The notes: generated by a model from the sequence alone, not told the origin. A DNA stretch of 64,000 bases from an uncultured Nitrospiraceae bacterium (GCA_963811165.1 CAWEQH010000001.1:320001-384000), one strand, 5' to 3'; numbered from the stretch's first letter, positions 3,156 to 33,685 are shown. Translations and numbers: made by a program.

Positions 3156-3199
3156 AGGTTAGCATAACCACGTTACATGAGTATGTCAGTTATATGAAA
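3156..3199 (-). promoter_or_regulatory. Pho-box-type promoter (3 repeats) for the microprotein gene
   Basis: Minus strand TTTCAT-n5-TGACAT-n5-TGTAAC-n10-TAACCT. Confidence 0.55.
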
Positions 3200-3292
3200 T
3201 TTTGAACGCCTAATCGAAAAGAGCAGCCTTTCGCTGTGTTCTTTCGCGGCGAAAAGGAAAACTTTCTACCGCAGTAGTCTGATGTATGGTCT

Positions 3293-3347
3293 CTTCACAC
3301 AATTATCATTATGGCTTCATCATCCTGTAATAAAAAGTAATTACCAT
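3293..3347 (+). promoter_or_regulatory. Pho-box-type promoter for the dedA-family gene
   Basis: CTTCAC-n5-TATCAT-n5-CTTCAT-n5-TGTAAT-n10-TACCAT. Confidence 0.65.
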
Positions 3348-3368
3348 ATACGTAATGAGGCGGCATTC

Positions 3369-4004
3369 GTGAGCGAAATATTCGTACTGGTTGATCGGTT
3401 CCCCACTATTGCATTATTTATCCTCCCTATCCTCGGAAGTGTCGGGCTGCCGGTCCCTGAGGACGCCATATTATTTTTGTGCGGCATATTGATTTCAAAA
3501 AAAAGCGTTTTGCCCCTCTCCGGACTTATGTCGGTGTATGCCGGCATTTTGCTTAGTGATTTTCTTCTCTATTCAATCGGGCGGAAATACGGTAGCCGGA
3601 TTGTCAGGCATAAGATATTCCGGAAAATACTCCCCCCTGAGAAGCTTGTCCTTTTAGAACAGAGATTCATCCGGTCCGGCCCTCTTATCATTTTGCTTGG
3701 CCGTCAGCTCTTTTGGGTGCGCGCAAAAGTTTTTCTCGTGGCGGGTATAATGAAAATGCCGGTTAAGAAGTTTCTGTTTATCGACGCGATCGCAGCATTG
3801 TGTACGACCGGCGTCATCGTAGCGCTTGGATATTCAGGGGGCACTTTTTTGTCATATTTCAGCCGTATTTCACCCCAAGCCGCCCGGATGGTCTGGATAG
3901 TAGTTTTTGTCCTTGCGATTATGGCTTTTATCTACCGGCTCTCAGTTTTGAAAAGCAGGAAAATATCTAAAACGTCCAGACTCCAGCTGAGCTGGCATCG
4001 GTGA
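3369..4004 (+). CDS. DedA/SNARE-associated family membrane protein
   Basis: GLPVPED, DFLLYSIGRKYG, LLGRQLFWVR motifs; start placed at GTG 3369 because the ORF-track start (3282) lies upstream of the promoter. Confidence 0.85.
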   Translation: MSEIFVLVDRFPTIALFILPILGSVGLPVPEDAILFLCGILISKKSVLPLSGLMSVYAGILLSDFLLYSIGRKYGSRIVRHKIFRKILPPEKLVLLEQRFIRSGPLIILLGRQLFWVRAKVFLVAGIMKMPVKKFLFIDAIAALCTTGVIVALGYSGGTFLSYFSRISPQAARMVWIVVFVLAIMAFIYRLSVLKSRKISKTSRLQLSWHR

Positions 4005-4258
4005 AAATCCGGCGCGAAATAGTGCGTAGATTTCTTATGGCGGCGATCCTTGCTTCCTTGTTTTTCATTAAAGCAGGCGGGGCGACGGCGAGTCTGCCAT
4101 CGCAACTATTAATCGGCTTTGACGGATCAACACGGGATAATGGTACGCCTCCTCAGCCGTGGACCGTCAGACTCAGAGAAGGAAAAGCCGGCGCAACGGT
4201 GAATTCTATAACAATTTTGCGCCCTGTTGGGCCAACCTGGACCTTACGCTCTCGTTGA
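4001..4258 (+). pseudogene. Probable truncated exported protein (signal peptide plus DUF3047-like start), running into the phoH 3' end
   Basis: GTGA overlap with the dedA stop, signal peptide, GTPPQPW segment, then overlaps the opposite-strand gene. Confidence 0.35.
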
Positions 4259-5495
4259 GATGCAGGAAACAAAAGTTTTCTTCCTGTATGAACTTGCTGA
4301 TGAGATATGCGAGTCCGTTGCTCATGGCGTCCAGGTATGGTGTATCTATCTGGTCGAGGTCTCCGGTGAAGACGATTTTAGTCCCTTCGCCGCACCTCGT
4401 GATGATCGTTTTAACGTCCAACGGCCGGAGGTTCTGAGCCTCATCAATGATGAAGTATCTCCTGGGCAGGCTTCTTCCCCGGATATAGGTAAGGGCCTCG
4501 ATCTGGAGCACGCCTGAATCGATCAGATACTGAAAATTCTTATATCCATAAAGGGCGGTGTTGTCTTTTACCTGGTCTTTCGGCGTGCGTACGATGACCT
4601 CAAGACTATCGAAGATCGGCTGCATCCAGGGCGCAAGTTTTTCGCCCACATCTCCGGGAAGGTAGCCGATATCATTTCCCATAGGAACAATCGGTCTTGC
4701 CACGACTACCTGTTCATAAAGGGGTGATCTTTTCGTTGTCTGATGTATTGCTGCGGCCAGGGCGAGGAGTGTTTTTCCTGTTCCCGCGGTTCCGGTCAAC
4801 GCCACAACCTCGATATCGGGGTTGATCAGGGCATCGATTGCGCATCGCTGTTCGACGTTCTTCGGGGATATGCCGTCAAGCGATTTGCCATTTCTGATCT
4901 TTGATGCGTCGTCTCTTCCCCTGAGCCGATATATGTCATCGGCTTCCTTCAGATACCGGACGGAATGAATGCCGTTACGATAATCACCGTTGCTTAGAAC
5001 TTTCCCGTACTGCTTGAACATCGACGTCTTGTCGTTTTTGTAATCCTCAGCATGGAGACCGAATGACTCGGCCTTTATTCTTACTGCAGTGTCTTTTGAC
5101 ACAAGTATTACGCGGGGCGCCCCCCCGTTTTTGTCCCGGGATTCAGACGCGGAGATCGAAAGGGCGGTGCTGATAATCTGGTTGTCCTCAACGCTGCAGT
5201 CAAGGGTCGGAGGCGCGGCCTCATTCGGCCCGGTGCTGACTAAGAGGACACCGCCTTGCTTTAGGGTTATCCCCGAAGAGAGAGAACCTCTTTCCCTCAG
5301 GGAGTCTATTATCCTCAAGGCCTTCCTCGCAGAAGCTGCAATTTCTCCCGGGCCTTTTTTAAGCCTGTCAAGCTCTTCGATTACGACAAAGGGGATTACA
5401 ATATCGTTCTCATCGAACCTAAAGAGAGAACTCGGATCGTGAATCAGGACATTGGTATCGAGCACAAAGATTTTTTTGGTCTCCTTCGTTTCCAT
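4206..5495 (-). CDS. phoH: PhoH-family ATPase with N-terminal PIN domain
   Basis: FVLDTNVLIHDP PIN motif, GTAGTGKT Walker A, IGYLPG, YIRGRSL, IIDEAQN, GDLDQID; start at METKE after GAAGGTGA (ORF track extends to 5570). Confidence 0.9.
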   Translation of the reverse strand: METKETKKIFVLDTNVLIHDPSSLFRFDENDIVIPFVVIEELDRLKKGPGEIAASARKALRIIDSLRERGSLSSGITLKQGGVLLVSTGPNEAAPPTLDCSVEDNQIISTALSISASESRDKNGGAPRVILVSKDTAVRIKAESFGLHAEDYKNDKTSMFKQYGKVLSNGDYRNGIHSVRYLKEADDIYRLRGRDDASKIRNGKSLDGISPKNVEQRCAIDALINPDIEVVALTGTAGTGKTLLALAAAIHQTTKRSPLYEQVVVARPIVPMGNDIGYLPGDVGEKLAPWMQPIFDSLEVIVRTPKDQVKDNTALYGYKNFQYLIDSGVLQIEALTYIRGRSLPRRYFIIDEAQNLRPLDVKTIITRCGEGTKIVFTGDLDQIDTPYLDAMSNGLAYLISKFIQEENFCFLHLNESVRSRLAQQGAKLL

Positions 5496-5716
5496 TTCAC
5501 CTTCACCGCAAAACTGATGCAAAGGACTTTTCAGTTCAGACACCTTGTTCATAGGACCCTCCGTAGGCATATTTTATTTAAGGCGAGAAAGTGCCGGGAA
5601 ATAAATCGACAGGGGAATAAAGGATACTGCAGGCCGTCGGGAAATGCGTCATGGCCGAACATTCTTGCAGCGGCGCCATGTAACTGAGTCAAGATAGCTG
5701 CCATTCAATTAGTTAT

Positions 5717-5760
5717 AGTATGGCACATTATTATTACAGAAACGTTACATTTCTGATAAA
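5717..5760 (-). promoter_or_regulatory. Pho-box-type promoter for phoH
   Basis: Minus strand TTTATC-n5-TGTAAC-n5-TGTAAT-n10-CATACT. Confidence 0.65.
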
Positions 5761-5845
5761 TATAACATCTTAGAAAAATAAAATTTTTGTTAAGTCCCAT
5801 TATTCGAAGGTCATTTCTTGAAAAGGCGGCCTGACTTTCCCGGTT

Positions 5846-5900
5846 AGTAATCGAAATGTAACGTTCCCTTAATGATAGTGTAAAATAGGCCGACTATAAT
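5846..5900 (+). promoter_or_regulatory. Pho-box-type promoter, the upstream one of two in tandem before phoB
   Basis: AGTAAT-n5-TGTAAC-n5-CTTAAT-n5-TGTAAA-n10-TATAAT. Confidence 0.75.
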
Positions 5901-6021: not shown

Positions 6022-6076
6022 TGTAACGGAAATGTAATCTTTCCTTCACACTGCGGTAATATTCGTTCTTTACACT
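6022..6076 (+). promoter_or_regulatory. Pho-box-type promoter of phoB (autoregulatory)
   Basis: TGTAAC-n5-TGTAAT-n5-CTTCAC-n5-GGTAAT-n10-TACACT. Confidence 0.8.
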
Positions 6077-6116: not shown

Positions 6117-6812
6117 ATGGCTGATATCCCCAGAATTCTTGCTGTCGATGACGAACCCGATATTGTCGAGTTGCTCTCCTACAATCTCAGAAAGGAGGGG
6201 TTTACCGTTTCAACGGCATCCGACGCGGAGGAGGCACTGGAAAAGATCAGGGCTGAGGACTTTTCCCTCGTTCTTCTGGATCTTATGCTCCCCGGTATGC
6301 AGGGCATGGAACTCTGCCGTGTCCTTAAGAAAGACCCCAAAACGGCAAATCTCCCCATCATTATGCTTACGGCCAAGGTCGAAGAAGTAGACAGGGTCCT
6401 CGGCCTTGAGTCCGGGGCCGATGACTATATCACAAAGCCCTTCAGTCCGAGGGAACTCGTGGCGCGCGTTAAGGCCGTCTTAAGGAGGACCGCCCCGAAG
6501 GCCCCAGGAGAGGATATTATCCGGATCGGGGAACTCATGATAAACAGGGAAACATATGCCGTGACAAAGAATGATGTCTTGTTAGATCTCAGCGCCACGG
6601 AGTTTAAACTGCTTCTCTATCTCATTGAAAGAAGAGGCAAGATATACGACCGGGAACACCTACTCAAAGCCGTATGGAAGCATGAGGCCTATGTTGAACC
6701 GAGGACTATCGATGTGCATATCAGAAGGCTGAGAACGCAGATCGAAGACGACCCTTCGAATCCGAAGTATATCAAGACAAGAAGAGGCATCGGATATTAT
6801 TTTGACGTATGA
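6117..6812 (+). CDS. phoB: PhoB/PhoP-type OmpR-family response regulator
   Basis: VDDE, LLDLMLPG, LTAK, GADDYITKPFSPREL, RTIDVHIRRLR, TRRGIGY; Pho context. Confidence 0.9.
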   Translation: MADIPRILAVDDEPDIVELLSYNLRKEGFTVSTASDAEEALEKIRAEDFSLVLLDLMLPGMQGMELCRVLKKDPKTANLPIIMLTAKVEEVDRVLGLESGADDYITKPFSPRELVARVKAVLRRTAPKAPGEDIIRIGELMINRETYAVTKNDVLLDLSATEFKLLLYLIERRGKIYDREHLLKAVWKHEAYVEPRTIDVHIRRLRTQIEDDPSNPKYIKTRRGIGYYFDV

Positions 6813-8098
6813 TGGACCCTGGCGAACACACTGATACCGGCGGTGCCCCCTTATCGCCTGCAGCATCGGGCAATCCCTTTCTCTGGGGTGTCGCAACATC
6901 TGCCTTTCAACTCGAAGGCTCTCCTTATGCAGACTGGACGACATGGGATGAAATACTGAGTCAAAAGCCCGACATCACCAACCATTACCTTCTTTACAAG
7001 GAGGACCTTGCCTTATTAAAAGACCTCGGGGTAAATGCGTACCGGTTCTCTCCTGAGTGGAGCAGGATACAGCCGCGCGAAAAGGTCTGGGACGAGAAGG
7101 CGATAAGGCATTATCAGGAGGTTGTAGAGATACTCGTCAAAAATAATATCGAACCCATGCTTACCCTGAATCACTTTACGCATCCCCTCTGGTTCATAAA
7201 AAAATATCCATGGCATGAAGAGGCATCAGTTGAAAAATTTCTGACATTTGCGGATAAGATGGTTAAGACCCTGGAAGGGGTGCGGTACTGGATCACCTTC
7301 AATGAACCGTACGTCCTTGTCCTGGCCGGCTACTTTGAGGGCTGTACGCCCCCCGCGATCAAAGATGCGTCACTTGGGGTGAAAGCCCTGACGAACATTC
7401 TTAAGGCCCATGGGGCGGCCTATGACCTCATCCACTCACATATTCCGGATGGGATGGTGAGCATAGCGCATAATATGGCGTCATTTGCCCCATGGAGCAG
7501 ATGGAACCCCCTCGACAGGCTTCTCGTAAAGATCACGAAACACTTTTACAACCATTCGCTCCTGGATGCCTTCCTAAACGGCACGCTGAGCGTGAAGTTC
7601 CCTTTCAGGAGGGTGCTCGAGATTGAAGTTCCTATCAAGGGGAAACTCGACTTTTTCGGGGTCAATTATTACACGAGGATGCATCTTCGTTTCAATCCTT
7701 TCAAGAAAATGGGGATTGAGATAAGACACAGGGACATCGATGGTCAGGGACTCACCGACATGGGATGGGAAATCCATCCGCGCGGACTTGAAAAGGTCCT
7801 GAGATACGCCTCGAAACTCAATGTCCCCCTGATAATAACGGAAAACGGAATCGCAACCCGCGACAGTCAAAGGAAGATAAAGTTTATGCAGGGGCATATC
7901 GATGTTCTCGAAAAGTGCAGACGGGAAGGGAGGGACATCCGAGGATATTTTTATTGGACCCTGATCGACAACTATGAATGGCTCCAGGGACTCGACTCAA
8001 GGTTTGGACTCTATACCGTTGACTTCCAGACCCTGGAGCGCAGACCCACGAACGCGGCCGCCTACTACTCATACCTTATTAAGAGCCGGAAACTCTGA
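6809..8098 (+). CDS. Glycoside hydrolase family 1 (beta-glucosidase-like)
   Basis: FLWGVATSAFQLEG, YRFSPEWSRI, TFNEP acid/base, ITENG nucleophile, DNYEW; overlaps the phoB stop. Confidence 0.9.
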   Translation: MMDPGEHTDTGGAPLSPAASGNPFLWGVATSAFQLEGSPYADWTTWDEILSQKPDITNHYLLYKEDLALLKDLGVNAYRFSPEWSRIQPREKVWDEKAIRHYQEVVEILVKNNIEPMLTLNHFTHPLWFIKKYPWHEEASVEKFLTFADKMVKTLEGVRYWITFNEPYVLVLAGYFEGCTPPAIKDASLGVKALTNILKAHGAAYDLIHSHIPDGMVSIAHNMASFAPWSRWNPLDRLLVKITKHFYNHSLLDAFLNGTLSVKFPFRRVLEIEVPIKGKLDFFGVNYYTRMHLRFNPFKKMGIEIRHRDIDGQGLTDMGWEIHPRGLEKVLRYASKLNVPLIITENGIATRDSQRKIKFMQGHIDVLEKCRREGRDIRGYFYWTLIDNYEWLQGLDSRFGLYTVDFQTLERRPTNAAAYYSYLIKSRKL

Positions 8099-8198: not shown

Positions 8199-8253
8199 CT
8201 TCACGGAAATGTAATCCTTCCTTAATAATGCTGTAACTATCATATCGTAAGCT
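8199..8253 (+). promoter_or_regulatory. Pho-box-type promoter for the PHP-GT21 operon
   Basis: CTTCAC-n5-TGTAAT-n5-CTTAAT-n5-TGTAAC-n10-TAAGCT. Confidence 0.8.
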
Positions 8254-8290: not shown

Positions 8291-8983
8291 ATGCTGCTGT
8301 GTGATTTTCACATCCACACTACCTATTCAGACGGCTCTGTGGAGCTGAGAAGGACAATCGATCTTTTCGGACAGGCAGGCTTTGATGTTATTTCAATAAC
8401 GGACCATGTGGTCAATGGTGATAATCCGCTTGGAAAGCTCGCACATCGTTTTAAGTATTCTGTAACAGCCGATAACTTCAGTAAATATATTTCCCACATA
8501 AAAGAAGAGGCGCAAAGGGCGCAAGACAAATATGACATGCTCGTCATTCCCGGAATTGAAATAACCAAGAACCGTCTCACCATAGACAACTCAGCCCATA
8601 TGCTGATCATCGATGTCCAGGACTTCATCCCCGCGTGCATAAGTTATGAAGAGATATTCCTGGCGGCGAAGAGACAGAATGCCTTGACGATAGCATGCCA
8701 CCCGCATTATATGTCGGCAAAGAGCGACCGGGACACACTCTTTCTCTGGAACAACAGGGAAAAATATGCCCGCTACATCGACGCATGGGAGATCGCCAAC
8801 AGAGACGACGTCTTCAATGTAATAAGCCTCAAAAAATATCCGTATATCGCAAACAGCGACTTCCACAAGCCCAGACATCTTTACTCCTGGAAGACGCTTC
8901 TGAATTGCGCGAAAGACATAGACTCCATAAAACAGTGCATCAAACATAACAAGGGCGTTGCATTGACACTCTTTAGAAATTAG
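8291..8983 (+). CDS. PHP-domain phosphoesterase
   Basis: DFHIHTTYSDG, ITDH, GIEI, CHPH, ANSDFH motifs. Confidence 0.85.
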   Translation: MLLCDFHIHTTYSDGSVELRRTIDLFGQAGFDVISITDHVVNGDNPLGKLAHRFKYSVTADNFSKYISHIKEEAQRAQDKYDMLVIPGIEITKNRLTIDNSAHMLIIDVQDFIPACISYEEIFLAAKRQNALTIACHPHYMSAKSDRDTLFLWNNREKYARYIDAWEIANRDDVFNVISLKKYPYIANSDFHKPRHLYSWKTLLNCAKDIDSIKQCIKHNKGVALTLFRN

Positions 8984-8986
8984 GAG

Positions 8987-10201
8987 GTGAACATGATTTT
9001 ATTCTGGATCTTTGCGGGTATTACTTGCTTTGGGATAATCGGATATCTGCTTCAAATTGTCGCGGTCCGGTCATATACGGCATCCCCCAACTCAGGGGAA
9101 AGCGTACGCTTTCCCCAATCTTTTTCTCCGGTCTCAATCCTTAAGCCGCTCAAAGGCCTTGATGATGGGCTGTTTGACAACCTCGAAAGCTTCTGCAATC
9201 TTGAGTATCCCCACTATGAGATCATCTTTGCGCTTCAGAACCAGAATGATCCGGCCCATAAAGTGGTAAAAAAGGTAAAGGAGAAATACCCTTTAAAAGA
9301 CATAACCATTGTCGTTGAACATTGTGATGAGGGGCTGAACCCCAAGGTCAACAATCTGATCCCGGCATATAAGAGGGCCAAATATGATCTGATATTGATA
9401 AGCGACAGCAATGTCCGTGTGGAAAAAGACTACCTGGCTGCCATTGCCGGACACATGGAAGATCCGTCGGTCGGACTTGTCAGCAATATGATCAGGGGCG
9501 TACACGGCCGGTCCCTTGGGGCCCTCATGGAAAATCTCCACCTGAACACATTTATTGTGGGAAGCGTCTGCTTCCTCGATAAATATCTTAAGATGCCCTG
9601 TGTCGTGGGCAAGTCAATGCTGATGAGGAAGGCCGAGCTTGAAGCCATCGGGGGCTTCAGGTCTGTCAAGGACTTTCTTGCGGAGGACTACATAATCGGC
9701 CAAAGAATTCACGCACTCGGCAAAAGGGTCGTCCTTTCCGGCCATCTTATCAACAATGTCAATGAATATTGGGGGATAAAGAGGTTTATTAACCGTCATA
9801 CAAGATGGGGAAAGCTGAGATGGCAAATCGGAGGCGCGAAGTATTTCTCCGAATTGGCCGGCAATGCCGTATTCATGTCCTTCATGCCGATGGTCTTCAT
9901 GCCTGCGTCAAAAATTGCTTTATTGCTGGCTGCGGCGGTGAGTTCTCTGAAAATAGTCCATGATTTCTACATCGGCAACAAACTTCGCGCCGATATGAAC
10001 CCCCTGCTCTATTTGCTGTCCCCTGTCAAGGACCTTATTATCGGATTCGTATGGTTTGTGCCGATCCTGAGCAACACCGTAGCCTGGAGGGGCAACAGAT
10101 ATATCATCGGCAAGGAATCGATGCTCTCACCGTATCCGGAGACCGGCATATGGGCATGGCGGTACAGGATCATGGACGTGATAAAAACAAGGATTGCTTA
10201 G
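8987..10201 (+). CDS. Glycosyltransferase family 21 (ceramide glucosyltransferase/HpnI-like)
   Basis: SILKPLKG, NPKVNNL, ISDSNV, LAEDY, RHTRW motif; N- and C-terminal TM segments. Confidence 0.85.
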   Translation: MNMILFWIFAGITCFGIIGYLLQIVAVRSYTASPNSGESVRFPQSFSPVSILKPLKGLDDGLFDNLESFCNLEYPHYEIIFALQNQNDPAHKVVKKVKEKYPLKDITIVVEHCDEGLNPKVNNLIPAYKRAKYDLILISDSNVRVEKDYLAAIAGHMEDPSVGLVSNMIRGVHGRSLGALMENLHLNTFIVGSVCFLDKYLKMPCVVGKSMLMRKAELEAIGGFRSVKDFLAEDYIIGQRIHALGKRVVLSGHLINNVNEYWGIKRFINRHTRWGKLRWQIGGAKYFSELAGNAVFMSFMPMVFMPASKIALLLAAAVSSLKIVHDFYIGNKLRADMNPLLYLLSPVKDLIIGFVWFVPILSNTVAWRGNRYIIGKESMLSPYPETGIWAWRYRIMDVIKTRIA

Positions 10202-10232
10202 TGTATGAATGAGTATGACAAGGAGGTGCCAA

Positions 10233-10442
10233 GTGCATTGCCCGCTCAATCAAATCCCGATCGACAATCGGTCACACGCGGAGCATTCCTGCTGCCCTTA
10301 CAACGGAGCAGCCAACGGCATATGTTCCGCATCCCTTTCGACGATGATGATTGTTCCAAGCATGAGGGAGGGGTACTGTGAAAACGAGAATTACGATAAT
10401 TGCCCGATTTTCTTATCGAAAATCATGAGGAAAAAGACGTAA
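10233..10442 (+). CDS. Four-Cys microprotein, CPY-x7-C-x17-C-x7-C-PIF
   Basis: RBS AGGAGG before GTG 10233; shared Cys spacing. Confidence 0.7.
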   Translation: MHCPLNQIPIDNRSHAEHSCCPYNGAANGICSASLSTMMIVPSMREGYCENENYDNCPIFLSKIMRKKT

Positions 10443-10471
10443 CCCGTGTTTTCTTATATGGAGGTGTGTGC

Positions 10472-10855
10472 ATGATGCAGCAGAAGAAGATTCTTATCAT
10501 CGATGACGACATCCGATATCTTATTGATGCGAAACGCTGTTTGCAGTCTCGCGGGTATGCGGTGAGTATCCATGAGCATTCAGCCGGCTCGCCTGTCATG
10601 ATCAGGAACACGAAGCCGGATGTTGTGTTACTCAATATCAGAATGGGTGACCTGTCCGAAGAGAAGCTGTCATACCTCCTCGGTGCAAACCGGCATGCAC
10701 GGGGAGTTCCCGTGGTATTCTATTCCTCCCATGACGAGGAAGGCCTCAGGAATGCCGCTGTACGTCACGAGGCCGAGGGATATATACGCAAAGGAGATGT
10801 CTCCCTGCTTTGCGATAAGGTTGATGCTTTTTGTCCCATCGAGCTGAGGGCGTAA
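10472..10855 (+). CDS. Single-domain receiver protein with Asn at the phosphoacceptor position
   Basis: KILIIDDD, PDVVLLNIRM, VVFYSS, YIRKG; RBS GGAGG. Confidence 0.8.
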   Translation: MMQQKKILIIDDDIRYLIDAKRCLQSRGYAVSIHEHSAGSPVMIRNTKPDVVLLNIRMGDLSEEKLSYLLGANRHARGVPVVFYSSHDEEGLRNAAVRHEAEGYIRKGDVSLLCDKVDAFCPIELRA

Positions 10856-23936: not shown

Positions 23937-24070
23937 TTAAGGTCGGCACTCTGGTGGGCATGAGTATAGTGACCACAGGGAAAGCTCAAGGCTGAGCCGT
24001 GATCGGTCGTATGAAGTGCCGGACGATCGTAAAGACATCGTTGAATTCTCACTTAATAACTAGGAGGCAA

Positions 24071-24735: not shown

Positions 24736-24791
24736 TTTAACAAACAATTGATGCAGCATTCATTATGGCGTAACAACGATTCTGATTTAAT
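24736..24791 (+). promoter_or_regulatory. Pho-box-type promoter for the pentapeptide-repeat/phosphatase operon
   Basis: TTTAAC-n5-ATTGAT-n5-ATTCAT-n5-CGTAAC-n11-TTTAAT. Confidence 0.6.
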
Positions 24792-24895: not shown

Positions 24896-25708
24896 ATGAA
24901 GATAAGGCCTGTAGCACTGATGGGGGTAACCATTTTTTTCGTACTTCAGATAGGCACTATCGTGTACGGTTTCAAGCCGGCTGATCTGGATAGATTGAGG
25001 GCAACCAATCAATGTCCCCAGTGTGACCTGAGCGGGGCGGACCTGAGCGGGCTGGACCTGGCGGGGCAGGATCTCAACGGGGCGGACCTGAGCGGGGCGA
25101 ACCTGAGCGGGACGGACCTGAGCGGGACGGACCTGAGCGGGGTGAACCTTAACGGGGCGAACCTGGGCGGGGCGAACCTCAACGGGGTGGACCTGAGCGG
25201 GGCGAACCTCAACGGGGCGGACCTAAACGGAGGGGACCTCAACGGGGGAAACCTGGACGGGGTGGACCTGAGCGGGGCGAACCTCAACGGGGTGACCCTA
25301 AGCGGTGTGAACCTGGACGAGGTGAACCTCAGAGGGGCGGACCTGGAAGGGGCCAACCTAGAAGGGGCCAACCTCAACGTGGTGAACCTGGACGAAGTGA
25401 ATCTGACCGGGGTGAACCTGGACAAGGTGAACCTGGCTGGCACAGACACGGCCGAAACGAACCCGGATGGAACGAACCCAAAAGAGACTAGCACAAAGGG
25501 AGCTAATCCGCATGAAGCGAACCCGGATGGAGCGAATCCGGATAGCGCTGATCAGAACGTGCCAAGCGCGGATAGTGCGTCTTTGAGGGACGCAGATCTT
25601 TCAACCTTGGATAAGCAGGGCAATAGATCCAGCAACAACGGCAGCCCTCTTTTGACTGCCGGACAGCAGATAGTCACCATAAAAGGGGGTGAGATAAAGA
25701 TTCATTAG
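24896..25708 (+). CDS. Exported acidic pentapeptide-repeat protein
   Basis: Signal peptide, CPQCDL cap, long run of A(D/N)LxG repeats, then xNPDG-type repeats. Confidence 0.85.
   Translation: MKIRPVALMGVTIFFVLQIGTIVYGFKPADLDRLRATNQCPQCDLSGADLSGLDLAGQDLNGADLSGANLSGTDLSGTDLSGVNLNGANLGGANLNGVDLSGANLNGADLNGGDLNGGNLDGVDLSGANLNGVTLSGVNLDEVNLRGADLEGANLEGANLNVVNLDEVNLTGVNLDKVNLAGTDTAETNPDGTNPKETSTKGANPHEANPDGANPDSADQNVPSADSASLRDADLSTLDKQGNRSSNNGSPLLTAGQQIVTIKGGEIKIH
25025..25440 (+). repeat. 15-bp tandem repeat encoding the pentapeptide units
   Basis: Iterated variants of GGGGCG(G/A)ACCTGAGC / GGGGTGAACCTCAAC. Confidence 0.8.
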
Positions 25709-25764
25709 GCATTGCAGGGTGAGAAGCGTCAATAACAGCAGCATACCATAAACAAAAAGGAGAG

Positions 25765-27567
25765 ATGAATACCATGAAGAAAAAAGTATTGACTAGTTTA
25801 GTTTTTGTGCTGGCCTTTGCTGTGTTCAGCACGGCGGCTTTCGCAGGCATTCTGAAAAAGCCCTACTTGATTTACCCGGGGGTGAACACCCAGATGGAGG
25901 TGGTCTGGCAGGACGACACCGCGAGCGAGACGAATACCATTAGTTGGGGCACCGACATGACGTACAGCATGGGTAATGTGACGGCGCCTGAGTTCGGCGA
26001 CAGGCAGCACAAGTACACAATCACCGGACTGACGCCGAACAAGAAATACTACTACCAGGTGGCTGACCAGACCAGCGGCGCCATCTACGGCGCCGGATCG
26101 TTTATCACTGCGCCCCACGGAAGCGCAACTGCGGTAAGGTTCCTCGCATTGGGTGATTCCAGGAGCCAGCCATTTGCCCTGGACAACGTGATGCAGGCGA
26201 TGCGCAGCTTTTATTCACAGCCAGGCAACGAGGACTATCAACGCCTTACCATTCATAACGGGGACTGGGTGAGCACCGACGGCGAAAGCTACTGGACGAC
26301 CCAGTGGTTCGACGCGACCAAGACGGACATCGTCGCATTTACGGCGAATTCGCCCATCGACGGATGCAAGGGTAATCATGATAACGCTTCAGGGTACAGC
26401 GCTACCTTCCCGAAGTACTTTCCCTTCCCGTATACGAATATGACTTCTAAAACAGTTGCTCCTACAACAGATGCCAGTGGTAATCCTTACTACAATAACC
26501 TCTACTGGTCCTTCGATTACGGTCCGGTCCACTTCACCGTTGTCGACGAGTACTCAAGCTATGCTCCAGGCTCCCCCCAGTACAACTGGCTCGTAAACGA
26601 TCTGGCCACGACAACAAAGCCGTGGAAGATCCTAATATACCACGAGCCGTCGTATTCCGCCGGCAAAGACGGCGACAACATCACTGCGAGGGCGCTCGAA
26701 CCTCTCATCACTCAATATAATGTGGACCTGGTCTATGCCGGCCACAGCCACAACTATGCCCGCACCGGGGCCTATACTTCCGCCCAGGCAAACGGTGACC
26801 AGATCGCCCTGAATGTCCCGCATATCACCAGCGGCGGCGGCGGCGCACCAGTTTATCAGCCCGATATGACCAATGAGGGCAACTTTCCGCACGTAATCAC
26901 AGCCTGGCCGGCCATGGAGTTCATGACCTTCGACGTAGATGGGGAAAACCTCACCATGACCGCCTATCAGGTAAACAACGTGAGTACGTCCGCTATCCAG
27001 CCTTCGTCGGCGCTGTCCCTTTCACCGATCGAGACTGTTGCTCTCCATCACTTTACCGACGTCTCATCGCAGGTAAGCGTAAAAACCACCCACATGACTT
27101 ACAATCCTGCGACCCAGCTATACCGGTGCAACCTGGAGATCACTAATAACGGCCCCGCCCTCACCGGTAACATCCACGTTGTTCTGGACGGCATTGTCAA
27201 CCTCCAGGGGGTCGGCAATGCAGATAACGAATACAGCACCACCACTCCGAAAATTGCCTCAAAGATCGCCCAGAACACCGGCCTCATCACGGACGTCACG
27301 CTGGTCAATGCAACCGGTTCGAACAATGGTGAGCCGATGATCCGGGCTAAACATACCGGATTGGCCAAAAGAGACTCGGTCGTCGTTCCGCTATCGTTCA
27401 GCAATCCGAATAACACAGCGATTACCTTTACGCCTGTGGTGTTGCTTGAACGAGAACATGGGCGTCAGTGCAACCGGCGCGAACAATGTCGAACCGATGA
27501 TGATAAGGGCTACGACCAATGGTCTGGCAGCCGGCAAGAAGACAGTCATTCCGCTGAAGGTCGGTGA
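25765..27567 (+). CDS. Secreted purple-acid-phosphatase-like metallophosphoesterase with FN3 domain
   Basis: Signal peptide; GLTPNKKYYYQV FN3; LGDSR, HNGDWV, GNHD, YHEP, AGHSHNY metal motifs. Confidence 0.85.
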   Translation: MNTMKKKVLTSLVFVLAFAVFSTAAFAGILKKPYLIYPGVNTQMEVVWQDDTASETNTISWGTDMTYSMGNVTAPEFGDRQHKYTITGLTPNKKYYYQVADQTSGAIYGAGSFITAPHGSATAVRFLALGDSRSQPFALDNVMQAMRSFYSQPGNEDYQRLTIHNGDWVSTDGESYWTTQWFDATKTDIVAFTANSPIDGCKGNHDNASGYSATFPKYFPFPYTNMTSKTVAPTTDASGNPYYNNLYWSFDYGPVHFTVVDEYSSYAPGSPQYNWLVNDLATTTKPWKILIYHEPSYSAGKDGDNITARALEPLITQYNVDLVYAGHSHNYARTGAYTSAQANGDQIALNVPHITSGGGGAPVYQPDMTNEGNFPHVITAWPAMEFMTFDVDGENLTMTAYQVNNVSTSAIQPSSALSLSPIETVALHHFTDVSSQVSVKTTHMTYNPATQLYRCNLEITNNGPALTGNIHVVLDGIVNLQGVGNADNEYSTTTPKIASKIAQNTGLITDVTLVNATGSNNGEPMIRAKHTGLAKRDSVVVPLSFSNPNNTAITFTPVVLLEREHGRQCNRREQCRTDDDKGYDQWSGSRQEDSHSAEGR

Positions 27568-27724: not shown

Positions 27725-27779
27725 TTTAACGAAAAAATAATATTCATGTAATACTCACGCAATATAAAAGGAATACTAT
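27725..27779 (+). promoter_or_regulatory. Pho-box-type promoter for the radical SAM operon
   Basis: TTTAAC-n5-AATAAT-n5-TGTAAT-n5-CGCAAT-n10-TACTAT. Confidence 0.7.
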
Positions 27780-27809: not shown

Positions 27810-28916
27810 ATGACAACCAAAAAGGATATGCCGCGGCTTAAGCGTACCAAGCTCATTTCATTGATTATTCTTGCGCTCTTCGGGAGCCTGTTGTTGCCGC
27901 CGCTCTCCGGATCTGCGACCCAGGACAGCACGGCAGTGGACGAGCTTAAGCAGAAGGCCCAGCAGGCGTATATCGGCAGCCGCTATTCCGAGGCCGCCGC
28001 CACTTTCATTGAAATCGCCGAGAAGCATCCTGAAAGTGCGCCCCGTCGTTACGCCGTACAGATGCTGGGGACCCTGTATGAAGACAACCTTGTCGACATA
28101 AAGAAGGCGATCAAATGGGACCGGGAATTTCTGGAGAAATATGCTGGCCCCAGGCAGATCGCTTTTTACAAGGAGAAACTGGCCTCTCTCGAAAAGCTGA
28201 TGAACCAGGAGCAGGCCTTCAAGACCTATCAGGCGATCCGGTTCGCCAATGCCGGAGATGAAATCATGGTGAAGAAATTCGAGGCGTTGCTGAAGGAACG
28301 CCCTGATTTTCTTTTGAAGGACGATGTCCTGAGGGAGCTCGGATATGCCTATGACCGCATGGACAAGCGCCGGCAAAGCTATCTCGCCTTTAAGGCCATT
28401 GCCGCCCATAACGGCGAAAATAAACTCTCTGCAAGCGATCAGGTGGCCTATGAAGCGGCGAGCCGCCACTGGCAAATGTCATGGGCCTGGGCATGGGCCG
28501 CATGGGCAGTCATAGTGGCGCTCTGGGCTGCGGTCCTGCTGATGAATCCGTGGAAACAGCTTTCCCGATCCTCGATCAGAAATTTCCTGATTGTGGTTCT
28601 CCTTTGGGTGCTTTTGAATGCTCTCAGGATGCCGACCTTCTATTCCATGGAGACCGGGGGCTATCCAATCGTCATCCCCGATACTGTGGTTTACATGGTT
28701 GCCGGACTCAACTTGACGGTCCTCTTCTGGCTGCTGCTCCTGACCGGAGGAAAATTCTGGCAGACCCACCCCAGGGCGCTGCGCTGGCTCAGCCCCGTCC
28801 TCACCCTGCTGATGACCACGGCAGTTCTCTATCTATTTTTTGTATACCATCCCAATGGACCAGCGATTATAGACATTTTTGTCGACACGTTACGGTACAA
28901 AGCAGGGCTTCTGTAG
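27810..28916 (+). CDS. Membrane protein with extracytoplasmic TPR-like helical domain and four C-terminal TM segments
   Basis: Signal peptide, TPR-like helices (LGTLYED, LGYAYD), hydrophobic C-terminus. Confidence 0.75.
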   Translation: MTTKKDMPRLKRTKLISLIILALFGSLLLPPLSGSATQDSTAVDELKQKAQQAYIGSRYSEAAATFIEIAEKHPESAPRRYAVQMLGTLYEDNLVDIKKAIKWDREFLEKYAGPRQIAFYKEKLASLEKLMNQEQAFKTYQAIRFANAGDEIMVKKFEALLKERPDFLLKDDVLRELGYAYDRMDKRRQSYLAFKAIAAHNGENKLSASDQVAYEAASRHWQMSWAWAWAAWAVIVALWAAVLLMNPWKQLSRSSIRNFLIVVLLWVLLNALRMPTFYSMETGGYPIVIPDTVVYMVAGLNLTVLFWLLLLTGGKFWQTHPRALRWLSPVLTLLMTTAVLYLFFVYHPNGPAIIDIFVDTLRYKAGLL

Positions 28917-29008
28917 CGGACTGGGGGAACAATGAGCAGGAGACCGCGGCAAATGAACCGCACAGATCCCTGGAACAAAGAGAAAAAAGAAGAAGGAAGG
29001 TGAAAGAA

Positions 29009-29233
29009 ATGAAAGGACGAATCCTGAAGGTCAAGACTGGCTACAACCCGAATTCAAGCAGTATCGGCGTAGATATGGTGGTCTTCTTCACCGCCGGAGC
29101 GGCCATGACGGTCCTTTTCAATACTTTTGCTGCGGTCGTTAGTACGGCAAAGGGCCATGAGCACGGGCGACCGGAAGAAATGATAGAAATGCCCCTGCTT
29201 AGTCATGGGGAAGAGAAGGGGCGAGCGTTATGA
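29009..29233 (+). CDS. 74-aa protein with GYNPNSSS motif and one hydrophobic segment (candidate radical SAM substrate)
   Basis: MKGRILKVKTGYNPNSSSIG; purine-rich RBS; ATGA overlap with the radical SAM gene. Confidence 0.65.
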   Translation: MKGRILKVKTGYNPNSSSIGVDMVVFFTAGAAMTVLFNTFAAVVSTAKGHEHGRPEEMIEMPLLSHGEEKGRAL

Positions 29234-30369
29234 AGCATCGGTTTGAGTCGTTTGGAGGGATCCTGGCCCTGGAAAATCCCCCGACGCTGGTGCATGTAGA
29301 CCGGGACTTCATGCAAGGACTCGGTTATGATCACAGCCCGCTATGGGAAGGGCCTGAAACCCATGTTCTGTCCGCCCCCCTGGAGGTCCATTTTTCTGTG
29401 ACCAACGCCTGTTCCCAACGATGCAGTCACTGCTATATGGATTCTGGAGTAAGGGATACAGGCGAACTTTCGGCTGAGGATTTCCGCAAGGCAGTCGACC
29501 TGCTCGCCGAGATGGGCGTGTTCCATATGGCCCTGGGCGGCGGAGAGGCGCTGGAGCGAGCCGATTTCTTTGAATTGGCCTCCTATGTGCGCGATCGCGG
29601 TATAGTTCCCAACCTGACCACCAGCGGCGTCCTGATGACCCGAGAAAGCGCTGCAAAGTGCCGCGTGTTCGGGCAGGTAAATGTCAGCATCGACGGCACT
29701 GTGAGTTTCGAGAAAGCCGGCCGGAGTCCCATTGCTCTTCCGGCGGCAATACAAGGCGTGGACATGCTTCTTGAGGCGGGCGTCAGCGTGGGGCTGAACT
29801 GTGTGGTGAGCCGGCAAAGCTTCGATCAACTGAGCGAGTTGTTCATCTTTGCCCAGGAAAGAGAGCTTTCCGATGTCGAGCTTTTGCGACTCAAACCCTC
29901 GGGAAGAGGGACACAGGACTACTTCGAAAGGCGATTGACGCCGGCCCAGAACCGGGAATTCTATCCAACGATCCAGCGCCTTTCACAGGAATATGGGGTC
30001 CCGGCAAAGATCGACTGTTCATTCGTCCCGATGTTCTGCTGGCACCGGCCGGACAAAACGATTATGGAGCGGTTTTCGGTCTACGGATGCGAGGCAGGTA
30101 ACGTCCTCTTGGGGGTCCGTTCCGACGGCAGGTTTGCCGGCTGCTCCTTCTTATCCGGTGAGGAGAATATTTTCGATCTGCCCCGGCTCTGGACCGGCTC
30201 TGAACATCTCTCGCGCTTGCGCTCCTGGATTGACCGGGCGCCAGAGCCCTGTCGGTCGTGTGATTATCTCGATATCTGCAAGGGCGGCTGTCGTGCCGTG
30301 GCCGGCTTCGCCTCCGGAGACATTTACGCTCCCGACCCGGAGTGCCCTTTTGTTGTCGAGGTGGAGTGA
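29230..30369 (+). CDS. Radical SAM protein with SPASM domain
   Basis: CSQRCSHC, LGGGE, CEAG...GCSF...CRSCDYLDICKGGCRA...DPEC. Confidence 0.9.
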   Translation: MKHRFESFGGILALENPPTLVHVDRDFMQGLGYDHSPLWEGPETHVLSAPLEVHFSVTNACSQRCSHCYMDSGVRDTGELSAEDFRKAVDLLAEMGVFHMALGGGEALERADFFELASYVRDRGIVPNLTTSGVLMTRESAAKCRVFGQVNVSIDGTVSFEKAGRSPIALPAAIQGVDMLLEAGVSVGLNCVVSRQSFDQLSELFIFAQERELSDVELLRLKPSGRGTQDYFERRLTPAQNREFYPTIQRLSQEYGVPAKIDCSFVPMFCWHRPDKTIMERFSVYGCEAGNVLLGVRSDGRFAGCSFLSGEENIFDLPRLWTGSEHLSRLRSWIDRAPEPCRSCDYLDICKGGCRAVAGFASGDIYAPDPECPFVVEVE

Positions 30370-30426
30370 AGTATCAGATGTGGGAAAGGATATTTTTAAA
30401 AAAATGTCGACAAAGGAGAATGAAGT

Positions 30427-31044
30427 ATGATCAACCAATTTCTGACAGCGTTTCTGTTTACCACAGCTTATGCAGTCATTCGGTATGCAGGGTTCGGACA
30501 TGTCTCACTGATTCACGCACCTGTCTATATCATGAACAAAGCCGTATGCATGACAGCGGTAGAAGCGATGTTTATGGCGGCCCTCGGTCTCATGCGCGCG
30601 GAGAGGGACGCGGTCCGATTCTGGACAAACGCATGTTCGCAGCTGGTATTCGTCCACGTCCTGCTGTCGCTCGGCATCCTTTCGCAAGGATACTACGTTA
30701 ATTTCTTTGAAGGCGATAAGATGAGCCTGACGGGAGAACTGGTGCTGTTCATGGGAGTGCTGGCTGTCTATTGTTTCTGGCGCCTGCAAGCGACCCCAAT
30801 AAAACCGGACCTTAAGCGGACACTTACGATTCTTGCGTGCGCCCTCGTCTCAGGCCATCTTTTTGCGATGGGCTACAGGGATACGCTGAATGTCCAGAAG
30901 TGGAACGGGGGCCTGCCGCCTATGAGCATGTTAAGCTTCTTACTTGCCGTCTCCAGCCTGATTATGTTCGTGATGGCCAATAAGAAGTCCGCATCTTTAT
31001 CATCCGAGGAAGGCCGCGTCTTGCTATCGAAAATCGACTCTTAA
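30427..31044 (+). CDS. Multi-pass membrane protein with intramembrane His residues
   Basis: About six TM segments, VFVHVL and SGHLF; RBS AAAGGAG. Confidence 0.7.
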   Translation: MINQFLTAFLFTTAYAVIRYAGFGHVSLIHAPVYIMNKAVCMTAVEAMFMAALGLMRAERDAVRFWTNACSQLVFVHVLLSLGILSQGYYVNFFEGDKMSLTGELVLFMGVLAVYCFWRLQATPIKPDLKRTLTILACALVSGHLFAMGYRDTLNVQKWNGGLPPMSMLSFLLAVSSLIMFVMANKKSASLSSEEGRVLLSKIDS

Positions 31045-31075
31045 CCCGTTTGCTCATGCGAGGGACTTTGCGATT

Positions 31076-32464
31076 ATGCTATTGAGAAAACAATTTTTAT
31101 TAGTCATAACGTTTCTGTTACTTCTCACAACTGTTCCTGCCTTTGCTCACAACCTGTCTATGGGGGGGTCCAGGTGGTGTTTTGGCAAAAACACTATTAT
31201 CGGCAATGTTGACCTTGCTCCATCCTTATTAGCGGAAATAAAAGGAATAAAGGAGGGACATTATGAGCTTGATTCACTTTCCGATACGCAACTGCAGCAA
31301 GTTGCAAAGGATGTAATTCAGCCTTACATCAATAATAAGCTTTCCATAACGGTCAACGATACGAAATATCCTGTAAAGCTAAATAAAATAGCCAGAAATG
31401 GAGACTTATATACATTATGGCTGTCAGTAGATAATATCAGCTTTAATAACCCTGTAAATCCCGTCAGGATCGATTACACCTTATTATTTGAAGAGACAAA
31501 CAACGCGCATGTGAACCTCGCCTACGGATATTTGTCCGAGGCCACAGGAGCTGCGTTGCAAAAGGTGTTCGATTTTTCCCAGCCCGTATTCCAAAACACT
31601 TTTGACTATAAGGCCCCGGTATGGGAAGTCTCCATTAATGGAGCTGCAAATGCGTCTGCTTTGGAGCATAAGGCCGAGACCCCTGTCGTAACCGGCAGCT
31701 CGGACAGCCTTAAGGAAATTGCGACGCAAAAAAACGCTGCGGGCAATCCGCCGTCGGCAGGGCCTGTCGGCGACGATCGCCAAAGCAAGCCGGCGCCGGA
31801 TAAGTCGTCAGCCGAATCACCAATACATCCCCCTGGCAAGTCCTATTCCAAAGACAGAGAACACGGTTCTGTTTTGCGCATTCCCGGGGAAAGGTCCATA
31901 TGGGCCAATATAGGTCAATTTTTGGTCCTCGGCATTGAGCATATTTTGACCGGGTATGACCACATAGCATTTCTGCTGGCATTGATCGTTATCGGGCTTT
32001 CTTTAAAGGAAGTACTGAAGATCATTACCGCGTTTACCACTGCGCACAGCATAACCCTTCTTTTAGCGGCATTGCGGATTGTCAGCCTGAACTCAAGGCT
32101 TGTTGAAAGTGCAATAGCGCTTTCTATCTGCTATGTTGCGGCCGAAAACCTGCTCAAAAAGGAAGTTAATTACCGCTGGCTTGTAACATTCGGTTTCGGT
32201 CTGGTCCATGGATTCGGATTTGCGAGTGCTCTTCAGGAATTAATTGTGGGAAAGGCAAATTTGCTTCTCTCAGTGCTCTCCTTCAACATGGGAGTAGAAA
32301 TCGGACAATTGATGATAATCTTCGTTATGCTTCCCGTTTTGTACCTGCTTAGGAAGCAGTTTGAATTCAGGATAATAACTGCCGGCGCATCAGTAGCTAT
32401 CTTTGCCATTGGTTTTACCTGGCTTATTGAGCGGGTGTTCAACCTGAAACTGCTGGCGTTTTAG
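31076..32464 (+). CDS. HupE/UreJ-family protein with large N-terminal exported domain
   Basis: PAFAH signal site, LGIEHILTGYDHIAFL, TAFTTAHSITL, FGLVHGFGFA, FNMGVEIGQ. Confidence 0.85.
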   Translation: MLLRKQFLLVITFLLLLTTVPAFAHNLSMGGSRWCFGKNTIIGNVDLAPSLLAEIKGIKEGHYELDSLSDTQLQQVAKDVIQPYINNKLSITVNDTKYPVKLNKIARNGDLYTLWLSVDNISFNNPVNPVRIDYTLLFEETNNAHVNLAYGYLSEATGAALQKVFDFSQPVFQNTFDYKAPVWEVSINGAANASALEHKAETPVVTGSSDSLKEIATQKNAAGNPPSAGPVGDDRQSKPAPDKSSAESPIHPPGKSYSKDREHGSVLRIPGERSIWANIGQFLVLGIEHILTGYDHIAFLLALIVIGLSLKEVLKIITAFTTAHSITLLLAALRIVSLNSRLVESAIALSICYVAAENLLKKEVNYRWLVTFGFGLVHGFGFASALQELIVGKANLLLSVLSFNMGVEIGQLMIIFVMLPVLYLLRKQFEFRIITAGASVAIFAIGFTWLIERVFNLKLLAF

Positions 32465-32564
32465 ATTTAAGAAGATCGGGGAGTCCAGAAGAGGAAAAAA
32501 TAATTTGCCTTACGTTTGGAAAGGTACTTTATGGTTTGCCGAACATTTTACCGCTACCGGGGAT

Positions 32565-32933
32565 TTACAATAGGAGCCCAAGCAGTGACAGAGCGGACCC
32601 CTCAAATGCCCTGTCCACAAAGACTCCGAACGCGGCCTTGCCAAGGACCTTCCCTGCATTGGATGCCGCTGTCTGGATATACTGGTCGTTTGATATGGCC
32701 TTGGTCTCATCGAAATAGCCCGCCCTCTGAAGGGTATTGATTATGTCTTTGTCATTGATTTGGGATGCATTGTAGTGTATCGTCAGGCTTCCAGTGGTGC
32801 TGTTGATATCGATTGTGGCTATTCCTATGAGGACCGAAAGCAACATTTTTATATGATCGTGGGTGTTTTTGTTCTTGAAAACAGGGTTCCTCATGCGCAA
32901 TCTCCCTGGCGTGGTGTGAATGTAACAGTTCAT
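32565..32933 (-). CDS. HMA2-type domain protein with hydrophobic C-terminus
   Basis: YIHTTPGRLRMRNP...INSTTGSLTIHYN; RBS AAGGAGG. Confidence 0.8.
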   Translation of the reverse strand: MNCYIHTTPGRLRMRNPVFKNKNTHDHIKMLLSVLIGIATIDINSTTGSLTIHYNASQINDKDIINTLQRAGYFDETKAISNDQYIQTAASNAGKVLGKAAFGVFVDRAFEGSALSLLGLLL

Positions 32934-33232
32934 ACTATTTTATCCTCCTTCATTCTGAACTTCCTGAAATGCTTGCACTCAGGATATCCTGAACACCGGA
33001 ACCTGATTACGTCCCCTTCAATTTTGTAGACATGCATGGGCTTGCCGCATTCCTGACATGCAGGTTTCCCCTTGATCTCAGAAACCTTTGATCCATTTGT
33101 GAACTGCTTTCCGCAAATTATGCAGAGAAATCTCTGTTTCCCGGTCCCTGCCCTGCCGTAGCGGTATACTGCTTCGGAGTTGCAGGAGGGGCATGTCGAG
33201 TCTGTTTTTGACTTCTCATGCAACGTAATCAT
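32930..33232 (-). CDS. Double zinc-ribbon protein (IS1 InsA-like ribbon plus topoisomerase C4-type ribbon)
   Basis: CPSCNS..VYRYG...GKQRFLCIICGKQF and CQECGKPM...FRCSGYPEC. Confidence 0.75.
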   Translation of the reverse strand: MITLHEKSKTDSTCPSCNSEAVYRYGRAGTGKQRFLCIICGKQFTNGSKVSEIKGKPACQECGKPMHVYKIEGDVIRFRCSGYPECKHFRKFRMKEDKIV

Positions 33233-33238
33233 GGCTAC

Positions 33239-33294
33239 ATTATATATCGATAGGTGTTACACCCAAGTGAAGGCAATGTTACATTTCGGTTAAA
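33239..33294 (-). promoter_or_regulatory. Pho-box-type promoter, divergent from pstS
   Basis: Minus strand TTTAAC-n5-TGTAAC-n5-CTTCAC-n5-TGTAAC-n11-TATAAT. Confidence 0.8.
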
Positions 33295-33384
33295 TTTTTG
33301 GCGGTGCGTGGAAGGGTTTCCTTCCCTTACGACGGATAAGGGCTAAAATCAATTTATCTGCTTTCGGACAGTGTCATACACCCA

Positions 33385-33439
33385 ATAAATGCAAACTTAA
33401 TAATTCCTTAATATTGCTGTAACAATTCAATGTTATTTT
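33385..33439 (+). promoter_or_regulatory. Pho-box-type promoter upstream of the main pstS promoter
   Basis: ATAAAT-n5-CTTAAT-n5-CTTAAT-n5-TGTAAC-n10-TATTTT. Confidence 0.65.
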
Positions 33440-33630
33440 AGGTCATGCGAATGATCTTCTTGAGTCTCATGATTCGCCCGGTTGCAATAGTTGTTCCCTG
33501 TGAAGGCAGCCCTAATCTCTCTATATAGAGGAGATCTTCGATAAAAAATATGCGAGGAACTGCCATTTCGGTTATTTGCTATCGTGTGTATATGGCGGTA
33601 AAATCAGAAGGAGGTGAGATTGTCACGGCA

Positions 33631-33685
33631 TGTAACAGAAAATTAACTTCCTTGTAACAGTATTGTAACAATCAGTCTGTATCCT
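33631..33685 (+). promoter_or_regulatory. Pho-box promoter of pstS
   Basis: TGTAAC-n5-ATTAAC-n5-TGTAAC-n5-TGTAAC-n10-TATCCT. Confidence 0.85.

Follow-up and report, generated by a model that had tools for sequence, protein, structure and literature searches.

Pho Box-Like Promoter Arrays Clustered around the phoB-pst Region of a Thermodesulfovibrionales Bacterium, and the Genes Predicted To Respond to Phosphate Starvation

The 64,000-nucleotide stretch analyzed here (GCA_963811165.1 CAWEQH010000001.1:320001-384000; called the window throughout) was assembled from an uncultured Nitrospiraceae bacterium, and it contains 14 promoters that are each preceded by hexamers repeated at an 11-bp pitch. 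We are confident, on the strength of motif, spacing, conservation, and gene context, that these arrays are Pho boxes whose regulon would be bound by the response regulator PhoB. Taken together, they very likely mark the Pho regulon of a Thermodesulfovibrionales bacterium (Nitrospirota). Our scans of the host genome (G000, 3.66 Mb) show that most of its predicted phosphate-starvation genes are clustered in one 31-kb stretch. The regulon is ordinary in mechanism and unusual in clustering and cargo.

Architecture of the arrays

All 14 arrays reported in the initial annotation, with three or four hexamers each at an 11-bp pitch, are present where it placed them (Table 1). Its positions are those of the first hexamer for the plus-strand sites, while for the three minus-strand sites they mark the far end of the -10 element and not the start of the array, which lies at 3199, 5760, and 33294. 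When the hexamers are pooled, the monomer reads (T/C)(G/T)T(A/C)A(C/T). Twelve of the 14 arrays have four hexamers, and in arrays 3199 and 5760 three are clear. The claim that the last hexamer stands 10 to 11 nucleotides before a TAnnnT-like -10 element holds for 12 of the 14 (11 in the four-repeat register, plus 3199 in the three-repeat register) and fails for 5760 and 24736, whose -10 elements are weaker (CATACT at gap 10 and TTTAAT at gap 11). The reported lack of a TTGACA -35 element is borne out, the top match with a 16- to 18-bp spacer reaching only 1 to 4 of 6 positions in the 11 sites tested. The arrays cover 30.5 kb, and the distance from phoB1 to phoU is ~39 kb. As had also been noted, the housekeeping half has no array; the best score in the right-hand 26 kb of the window is 8.8.

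A matrix built from all 14 sites has 24 matches of ≥14 genome-wide, 14 of which are the window arrays, and leave-one-out scores of the arrays range from 13.0 to 27.7. When the same matrix is applied at pitches of 8 to 10 and 12 to 15 bp, it gives 0 to 6 matches, none of them in the interval, and 12 column-shuffled matrices give 1 to 10 matches each. With a matrix trained only on the pstS, phoH, and 6022 sites, 6 held-out sites fall within the genome's top 10 and four further sites rank 18 to 28; 3293 lies beyond the top 40. Sites scoring ≥15 occur in only 6 of 555 AT-rich noncoding gaps outside the interval, so the motif is not equally common in AT-rich intergenic DNA.

Table 1. Promoter arrays and genes of the interval, with window coordinates unless stated otherwise
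Feature	Position	Strand	Remarks
Box array	3156..3199	-	3 hexamers; TAACCT at gap 10; array start 3199
Box array	3293..3347	+	4 hexamers; TACCAT
Box array ahead of phoH	5717..5760	-	3 hexamers; CATACT at gap 10; array start 5760
Box array, upstream phoB2 promoter	5846..5900	+	TATAAT
Box array, proximal phoB2 promoter	6022..6076	+	TACACT
Box array	8199..8253	+	TAAGCT
Box array	13115..13170	+	TATGCT
Box array	13918..13973	+	TATCCT
Box array	23640..23694	+	TACAAT
Box array	24736..24791	+	weak TTTAAT
Box array	27725..27779	+	TACTAT
Box array	33239..33294	-	TATAAT; array start 33294
Box array, upstream pstS promoter	33385..33439	+	TATTTT
Box array, proximal pstS promoter	33631..33685	+	TATCCT
DUF47-like, PiT-like, phoB1, start of phoR	G000:C1:317240-319999		just upstream of window
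phoR-like sensor kinase, 3' part	1..1358	+	start upstream of window
Citrate synthase	1334..2680	-	possibly transcribed from 3199 box (presumed link)
56-residue four-cysteine (Cys4) microprotein	2924..3094	-	conserved in relatives
DedA/VTT membrane protein	3369..4004	+	weakly UptA-like
PIN-PhoH protein	4206..5552	-
phoB2, second PhoB-like regulator	6117..6812	+	69% identical to phoB1
GH1 glycosidase	6809..8098	+
PHP phosphoesterase, GT21/HpnI-like glycosyltransferase, 69-residue Cys4 protein (10233-10442), receiver protein	8291..10855	+
62-residue Cys4 protein; ArsC-like low-molecular-weight phosphatase/arsenate reductase	13191..13839	+
HMA_2 (CoBaHMA) protein with two Cys4 units	14010..14644	+	fused here; separate genes in G002
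DUF5132 protein	14937..15230	+	GxxxG hydrophobic N-terminus; FezA-like
HMA_2 protein with C-terminal hydrophobic segments	15208..15708	+	FezC-like; start uncertain
227-residue protein, 22-residue repeats, basic tail	15839..16522	+	predicted helical solenoid
P2A (Ca/Mn-type) P-type ATPase	16535..19594	+	N-terminal HMA_2
MetK paralogue	19591..20802	+	triphosphate/metal ligands kept; methionine-site residues replaced
DUF2934 protein; CBM48 protein	23763..24547	+
Pentapeptide-repeat protein; purple-acid-phosphatase-like metallophosphoesterase	24896..27567	+	signal-peptide-like N-terminus
368-residue protein, 74-residue peptide, radical SAM protein, 205-residue membrane protein, HupE/UreJ	27810..32464	+
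Double zinc-ribbon protein; HMA_2 protein	32565..33232	-
pstSCAB-phoU	33714..38040	+	~13 single-base indels

Arrays in related genomes

Of 139 related loci found via the 227-residue repeat protein of the window, 79 (1.24 Mb) were kept. These contain 260 arrays at pitch 11, compared with 1 or 2 at each of pitches 9, 10, 12, and 13, and an array is present in 67 of the 79 loci. After one duplicate locus and identical cores were removed, 244 relatives' sites remained, and a TAnnnT element, which lies outside the matrix, stands at gap 10 or 11 in 177 of them; shuffles give a mean of 17.7 and a maximum of 31. In 11 promoter pairs compared between G000 and its relative G002, identity is 93% in the hexamers, 79% in the spacers, and 57% in the ungapped flanks. 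An IUPAC pattern has 163 matches in 31 genomes (150 of them listed), versus 6 for the reversed control; G020, G021, and G023 have matches at several places.

The strongest and most constant site across the order is the one ahead of pstS. Among the 22 relatives that have pstS, 19 carry an array within about 300 bp upstream of it; there is none by pstS in G015, G016, and G025, and G015, unlike G025, lacks a close PhoB. Other phosphate-starvation genes that are boxed or adjoin boxes in relatives encode PsiE, phosphatases and other phosphoesterases, methylglyoxal synthase, and a GNAT plus acyltransferase pair resembling OlsB/OlsA of ornithine-lipid synthesis. The hexamer conservation, the pstS arrays, and the -10 spacing together support the earlier identification of the arrays as Pho boxes.

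The Pho box is defined as 11-nucleotide repeats, CTGTCAT in Escherichia coli, where PhoB contacts sigma70 (PMC4415409). The E. coli system shares with the host the 11-nucleotide direct repeats, PhoR-PhoB, and the pstSCAB-phoU, phoH, and phosphatase targets, and TGTCAT occurs as a variant hexamer here; in contrast to E. coli, arrays here usually contain four repeats, TGTAAC/TTTAAC is the most frequent hexamer, there are two phoB copies, and a single interval holds most of the strong sites. Cyanobacterial SphR uses at least three CTTAACCT repeats, likewise at an 11-bp pitch and with a YTTAAC core ahead of pstS and phosphatases (PMC1906773), whereas the last repeat here is mostly TGTAAC and both the phylum and the cargo differ. 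In the anaerobe Desulfovibrio vulgaris, PhoB (DVU1083) binds an experimentally validated (c/t)GT(n)AC direct repeat that shares its core letters with the motif here and stands ahead of pstSCA, but that box consists of 6-bp repeats spaced 4 bp apart, and the replication and energy targets described for it are not seen here (PMC3333781). The motif lies among these known boxes and is therefore not lineage specific in kind, as had been proposed; it is a Pho box of the usual sort, intermediate between those of E. coli and cyanobacteria, and it occurs across Nitrospirota. In a literature search, none of the 15 matches listed, of 245, contained the word Nitrospirota.

The regulators and the alternatives to a Pho regulon

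The window begins within phoR, and phoB1 lies with DUF47-like and PiT-like genes, which we so name from the appearance of their sequences, just upstream. Our check of the region upstream of phoB1 found no box, and among phoR-preceding phoB copies of relatives a box within 260 bp occurs in 0 of 11. In contrast, five of six GH1-preceding copies are boxed, and the sixth copy lies 324 bp from a box. The phoB tree does not settle one origin for the GH1-linked copies. In those of G004, G007, and G014 (L007:16368, L019:13214, and L014:18628) the recognition helix reads VHISRIR, not VHIRRLR. The gene at 6117 had been taken as the regulator of the arrays; it is indeed PhoB-like, but it is a boxed duplicate, and the phoB copy linked to phoR is found upstream of the window. 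Under phosphate shortage, PhoB, once phosphorylated by PhoR, would bind the three or four repeats in the -35 position and activate the genes behind them. The phoB1-phoR pair, which has no box, probably acts as the constitutive sensor, and phoB2, which is boxed, probably acts as an induced amplifier.

Several observations weigh against a PhoB regulon. The top NCBIfam match of 6117 is PhoB TIGR02154, with a score of 273.5 that is under the cut-off of 296.2 and is followed by YycF at 266.4; orthology therefore rests on context, namely, phoB1-phoR linkage and synteny with pst. In the PDB, its DNA-binding domain is nearest by sequence to YycF/WalR, with PhoB lower. G025 has phoB and pstS yet zero pattern matches, and G009 has no close PhoB yet 8 matches, mostly of a type ending in TTCAA. 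A model built from the relatives' sites places 13 window arrays among the genome's top 16 (3199 ranks 21), which speaks for the regulon, but this model is not fully independent, because those sites were themselves found with a matrix from the host genome. Many E. coli PhoB sites are transcriptionally inert (PMC10294691).

Some of these observations would also fit a different OmpR-family regulator, responding for example to metal or envelope stress. Genes for HMA, CDF, P-type ATPase, and HupE proteins abound in the interval, the genome has five more OmpR-like matches, and neither PhoB paralogue has been shown to pass the PhoB cut-off. Such a regulator would not account for the position of the most constant site ahead of pstS or for the several relatives in which phoBR lies ≤3 kb from a boxed pstS, and in the four relatives without a close PhoB the typical YGTAAY ending occurs in only 1 of 10 matches. 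We give this alternative a slim chance. The notion that the arrays arose by chance in AT-rich intergenic DNA draws on the degeneracy and AT-richness of the motif and on the presence of TTCAT/TTCAA-type arrays also in genomes without a close PhoB; against the excess at pitch 11, the scarcity of sites in AT-rich gaps, the fixed -10 spacing, and the footprint conservation, its probability is negligible. For the strong sites a chance origin is refuted, and the weakest arrays, 3199 and 24736, are less certain.

The interval as an elastic neighborhood

The initial annotation described a ~38-kb regulon island. The clustering is real, but neither the composition of the interval nor the mobility features searched for mark it as mobile. 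It contains no tRNA in a tRNA scan and no tyrosine integrase, the only integrase type searched, and an Rfam scan gave no match. Its GC fraction is 0.504, compared with 0.49 to 0.51 in the flanks, and by tetranucleotide distance it ranks 101 of 222. Inside the interval the DNA is 82 to 91% identical to that of G002, compared with 79 to 87% outside, and the flanking synteny is conserved in relatives. The view that the interval is a horizontally acquired mobile genomic island with its own regulon can appeal to the fact that content differs between relatives and to the 74-residue-peptide cassette, which 6 of 44 genomes of another family possess and which is absent from all other sampled genomes of the host's own order. 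Given the normal composition, the missing tRNA and tyrosine integrase, and the preserved synteny, we rejected it; its chance is slimmer still than that of another OmpR-type regulator. Single cassettes have probably moved, because the 74-residue cassette recurs in that other family and not elsewhere in the sampled order.

The phoB-pstS distance is 1.5 to 3 kb in several relatives, 5 to 10 kb in others, and 28 to 37 kb in G004, G000, and G002, and the box counts of the relatives' stretches compared run from 0 to 2 up to 12 to 15. Gene order within the interval is shuffled among genomes, and cassettes are gained or lost together with their boxes. The interval is thus an accretion into a chromosomal neighborhood, not a single mobile element; fragmented assemblies restrict the judging of clustering in other genomes. 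In Prochlorococcus, phosphate acquisition and arsenic genes are likewise gathered in variable or hypervariable regions (PMC3686209 and PMC3349580), whereas the interval described here has no compositional or mobility signal, nearly every operon is boxed, and the cargo is unrelated.

Genes behind the arrays

The recognizable cargo would serve scavenging (phosphatases and Pst), lipid substitution (PHP-GT21, GH1, and DedA), and arsenate handling (ArsC-like), and its uncharacterized part consists of the pump module and the Cys4 microproteins. The genes at 8291 to 10855 likely act in glycolipid substitution. The operon at 27810 to 32464, in which the gene for the conserved 74-residue peptide overlaps the radical SAM gene, could be a peptide-modification system. 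In the six genomes of the other family, the 368-residue/74-residue/radical SAM cassette is boxed (five boxes are close, one is ~950 bp off) and adjoins a phosphatase operon. The 74-residue peptide has no match in plasmids. The initial annotation placed many uncharacterized genes under phosphate control, and boxes do stand ahead of many, which predicts such control; others in the interval are unboxed, namely, those at 10979 to 12650 (including an Fe-S protein at 11343 to 12650), the CDF gene at 21002 to 21877, and those at 22142 to 23493, so that regulon membership is not shown for all interval genes.

Pump module and the storage proposal

The core of DUF5132 protein, HMA_2-transmembrane protein, 227-residue protein, and ATPase is present in 60 of the 79 loci, 55 of which also have the MetK paralogue; among 151 genomes of the order, the ATPase occurs in 33 and the paralogue in 32. 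The closest structures to the pump are Listeria LMCA1, SPCA1, and SERCA, and the family ATPases have PEGL in 61 of 61 and ordinary P2A residues. The 227-residue protein has no Pfam family, and the top matches of its structural model (predicted local distance difference test [pLDDT] score of 72) are designed helical repeats with Z ≤13.4, which imply no function. Some homologues of this protein (P0001, P0002, P0005, P0007, and others) are fused to a MucR domain, PF05443. A 127-residue helical protein that is phasin-like, ends in a lysine-rich tail, and matches no Pfam family lies near the module in 16 loci (e.g., L022:19652-20035) and was not seen in the window.

The MetK paralogue shares 48% identity with the housekeeping MetK encoded elsewhere in the genome and scores over the TIGR01034 cut-off. 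Eleven triphosphate and Mg/K ligand positions are kept in 57 or 58 of 58 sequences; apart from His14 and Asp163, the numbering of these ligands, like the role of K269, is our assumption. In contrast, E55R and D238H are found in 58 of 58, K269R is found in all, and Q98 and R229 are replaced, while the housekeeping enzyme keeps E55, Q98, R229, and D238. These four residues are S-adenosylmethionine (SAM) contacts of MetK, and His14 and Asp163 are among the triphosphate/metal ligands, so that the paralogue shares the fold family and the latter ligands with MetK and differs at the former (PMC8727953). We considered whether it might supply SAM for betaine lipids and abandoned this idea because the methionine site is replaced; there are no betaine-lipid genes among the recurring neighbors scanned.

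In a GxxxG small membrane protein, an HMA-plus-transmembrane protein, arginine-rich N-termini, and a P-type ATPase, the module resembles the ferrosome fez genes (bioRxiv 10.1101/2020.01.10.902569), a likeness of the small proteins judged by motif against that description and not by alignment to Fez sequences. In contrast to fez, the pump is P2A and not P1B-6 (the FezB motifs D[Y/F]SCA and HNxxT occur in 0 of 61), there are an extra repeat protein and a MetK paralogue, and the module is sited among Pho boxes. DUF5132 and CoBaHMA (HMA_2) proteins also lie beside a calcium transporter at Microcystis ccyA, but there the transporter is a CAX exchanger and is accompanied by the calcium-carbonate gene product calcyanin (bioRxiv 10.1101/2024.07.07.602159). 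No calcyanin is annotated in the window, where no calcyanin-specific search was made.

The module might form a Pho-controlled, ferrosome-like, membrane-bounded store of calcium phosphate or short polyphosphate that replaces missing polyphosphate kinases (PPKs). The DUF5132 and CoBaHMA proteins would shape the compartment, the 22-mer repeat protein would coat it, the P2A pump would load Ca, and the MetK paralogue, with its cationic methionine site, would make or split triphosphate. PPK1 and PPK2 were not found in the host genome or in the 151 genomes of the order, in a search whose controls were positive in 7 or 8 of 14. Among 201 genomes of the phylum, 31 have the paralogue and 60 have a PPK with an overlap of one, and ~111 have neither; this split follows family lines, so kinship confounds it. 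We consider the storage proposal doubtful.

Direct Pho control of the module is itself only partly supported. Of 60 loci, only 22 have a sense box directly ahead of it (36 when divergent boxes are counted too), and there are sigma70-like sites of the module's own at 14872 and 15776, both of which count against such control. Together with the ordinary P2A residues of the ATPase, they fit an explanation in which the boxes are PhoB sites and the module is merely a neighbor with its own promoters, serving Ca/Mn homeostasis or enzyme metallation instead of storing phosphate. Boxes are nevertheless carried by 54 of the 60 module loci, pst or phoBR lies within 10 kb in 31 of 60, and all five HMA_2 domains of the genome fall within the interval. 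This explanation is a serious possibility, if short of a probable one.

Cys4 microproteins

Five Cys4 units lie in the interval and eight lie elsewhere in the genome. Their four cysteines are invariant across 33 aligned members, and they likely bind metal. They match no Pfam or NCBIfam family, their Atlas neighbors are unnamed, their predicted structure is weak (pLDDT 58), and longer fused forms were not found, which is weak evidence. At 14291 to 14644, the two Cys4 genes of G002 correspond to one fused 117-residue open reading frame with an internal ribosome-binding site and start at 14465.

The three strongest boxes outside the interval (G000:C4:390513, C1:139818, and C4:139644) each precede a 69-residue Cys4 paralogue; at C4:390513 a DedA gene is also oriented divergently from the site, and a hemerythrin-like gene and an insertion sequence are nearby. 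Of the remaining five outside copies, four are unboxed and one is behind a TTCAA-type array. At G000:C8:157210-159460, a Cys4 gene behind a TTCAC/TTCAT/TTCAA-type 11-bp array lies just upstream of hgcA-like and hgcB-like ferredoxin genes, and the array is near-identical in G002, G003, G004, and G007. This pair, which we take to include an hgcA-like gene from its NVWCAAGK motif, is a probable set of mercury methylation genes.

Sequence quality and other parts of the window

Between 34408 and 37796 of the window, ~13 single-base indels disrupt pstC, pstA, pstB, and phoU in comparison with G002, where these genes are intact. Related contigs in four sequencing runs, none from the same strain, lack the extra bases at all listed places, and the indels are therefore probably assembly or consensus errors; a real loss of pst was rejected on the same evidence and on the intact genes of G002. 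At 38200 to 38360, trpB has no normal start, likewise probably a consensus error. The housekeeping half contains a fur-feoB pair at 57641 to 60021. The segment at 44745 to 47570 has no G002 counterpart and encodes a DUF4062 protein, small toxin-antitoxin-like open reading frames, and a PilZ protein.

Implications

If the storage proposal were true, the module would represent an organelle of a new type and a new way for microbes to store phosphorus; if it is false, what remains is an unusually tidy yet ordinary Pho regulon. In either case, the arrays would provide a testable phosphate-starvation map for a group of anaerobes of sediments and wetlands that is mostly uncultured. They also assign phosphate shortage as the predicted condition for several protein families without a function, and these families thereby become assayable.

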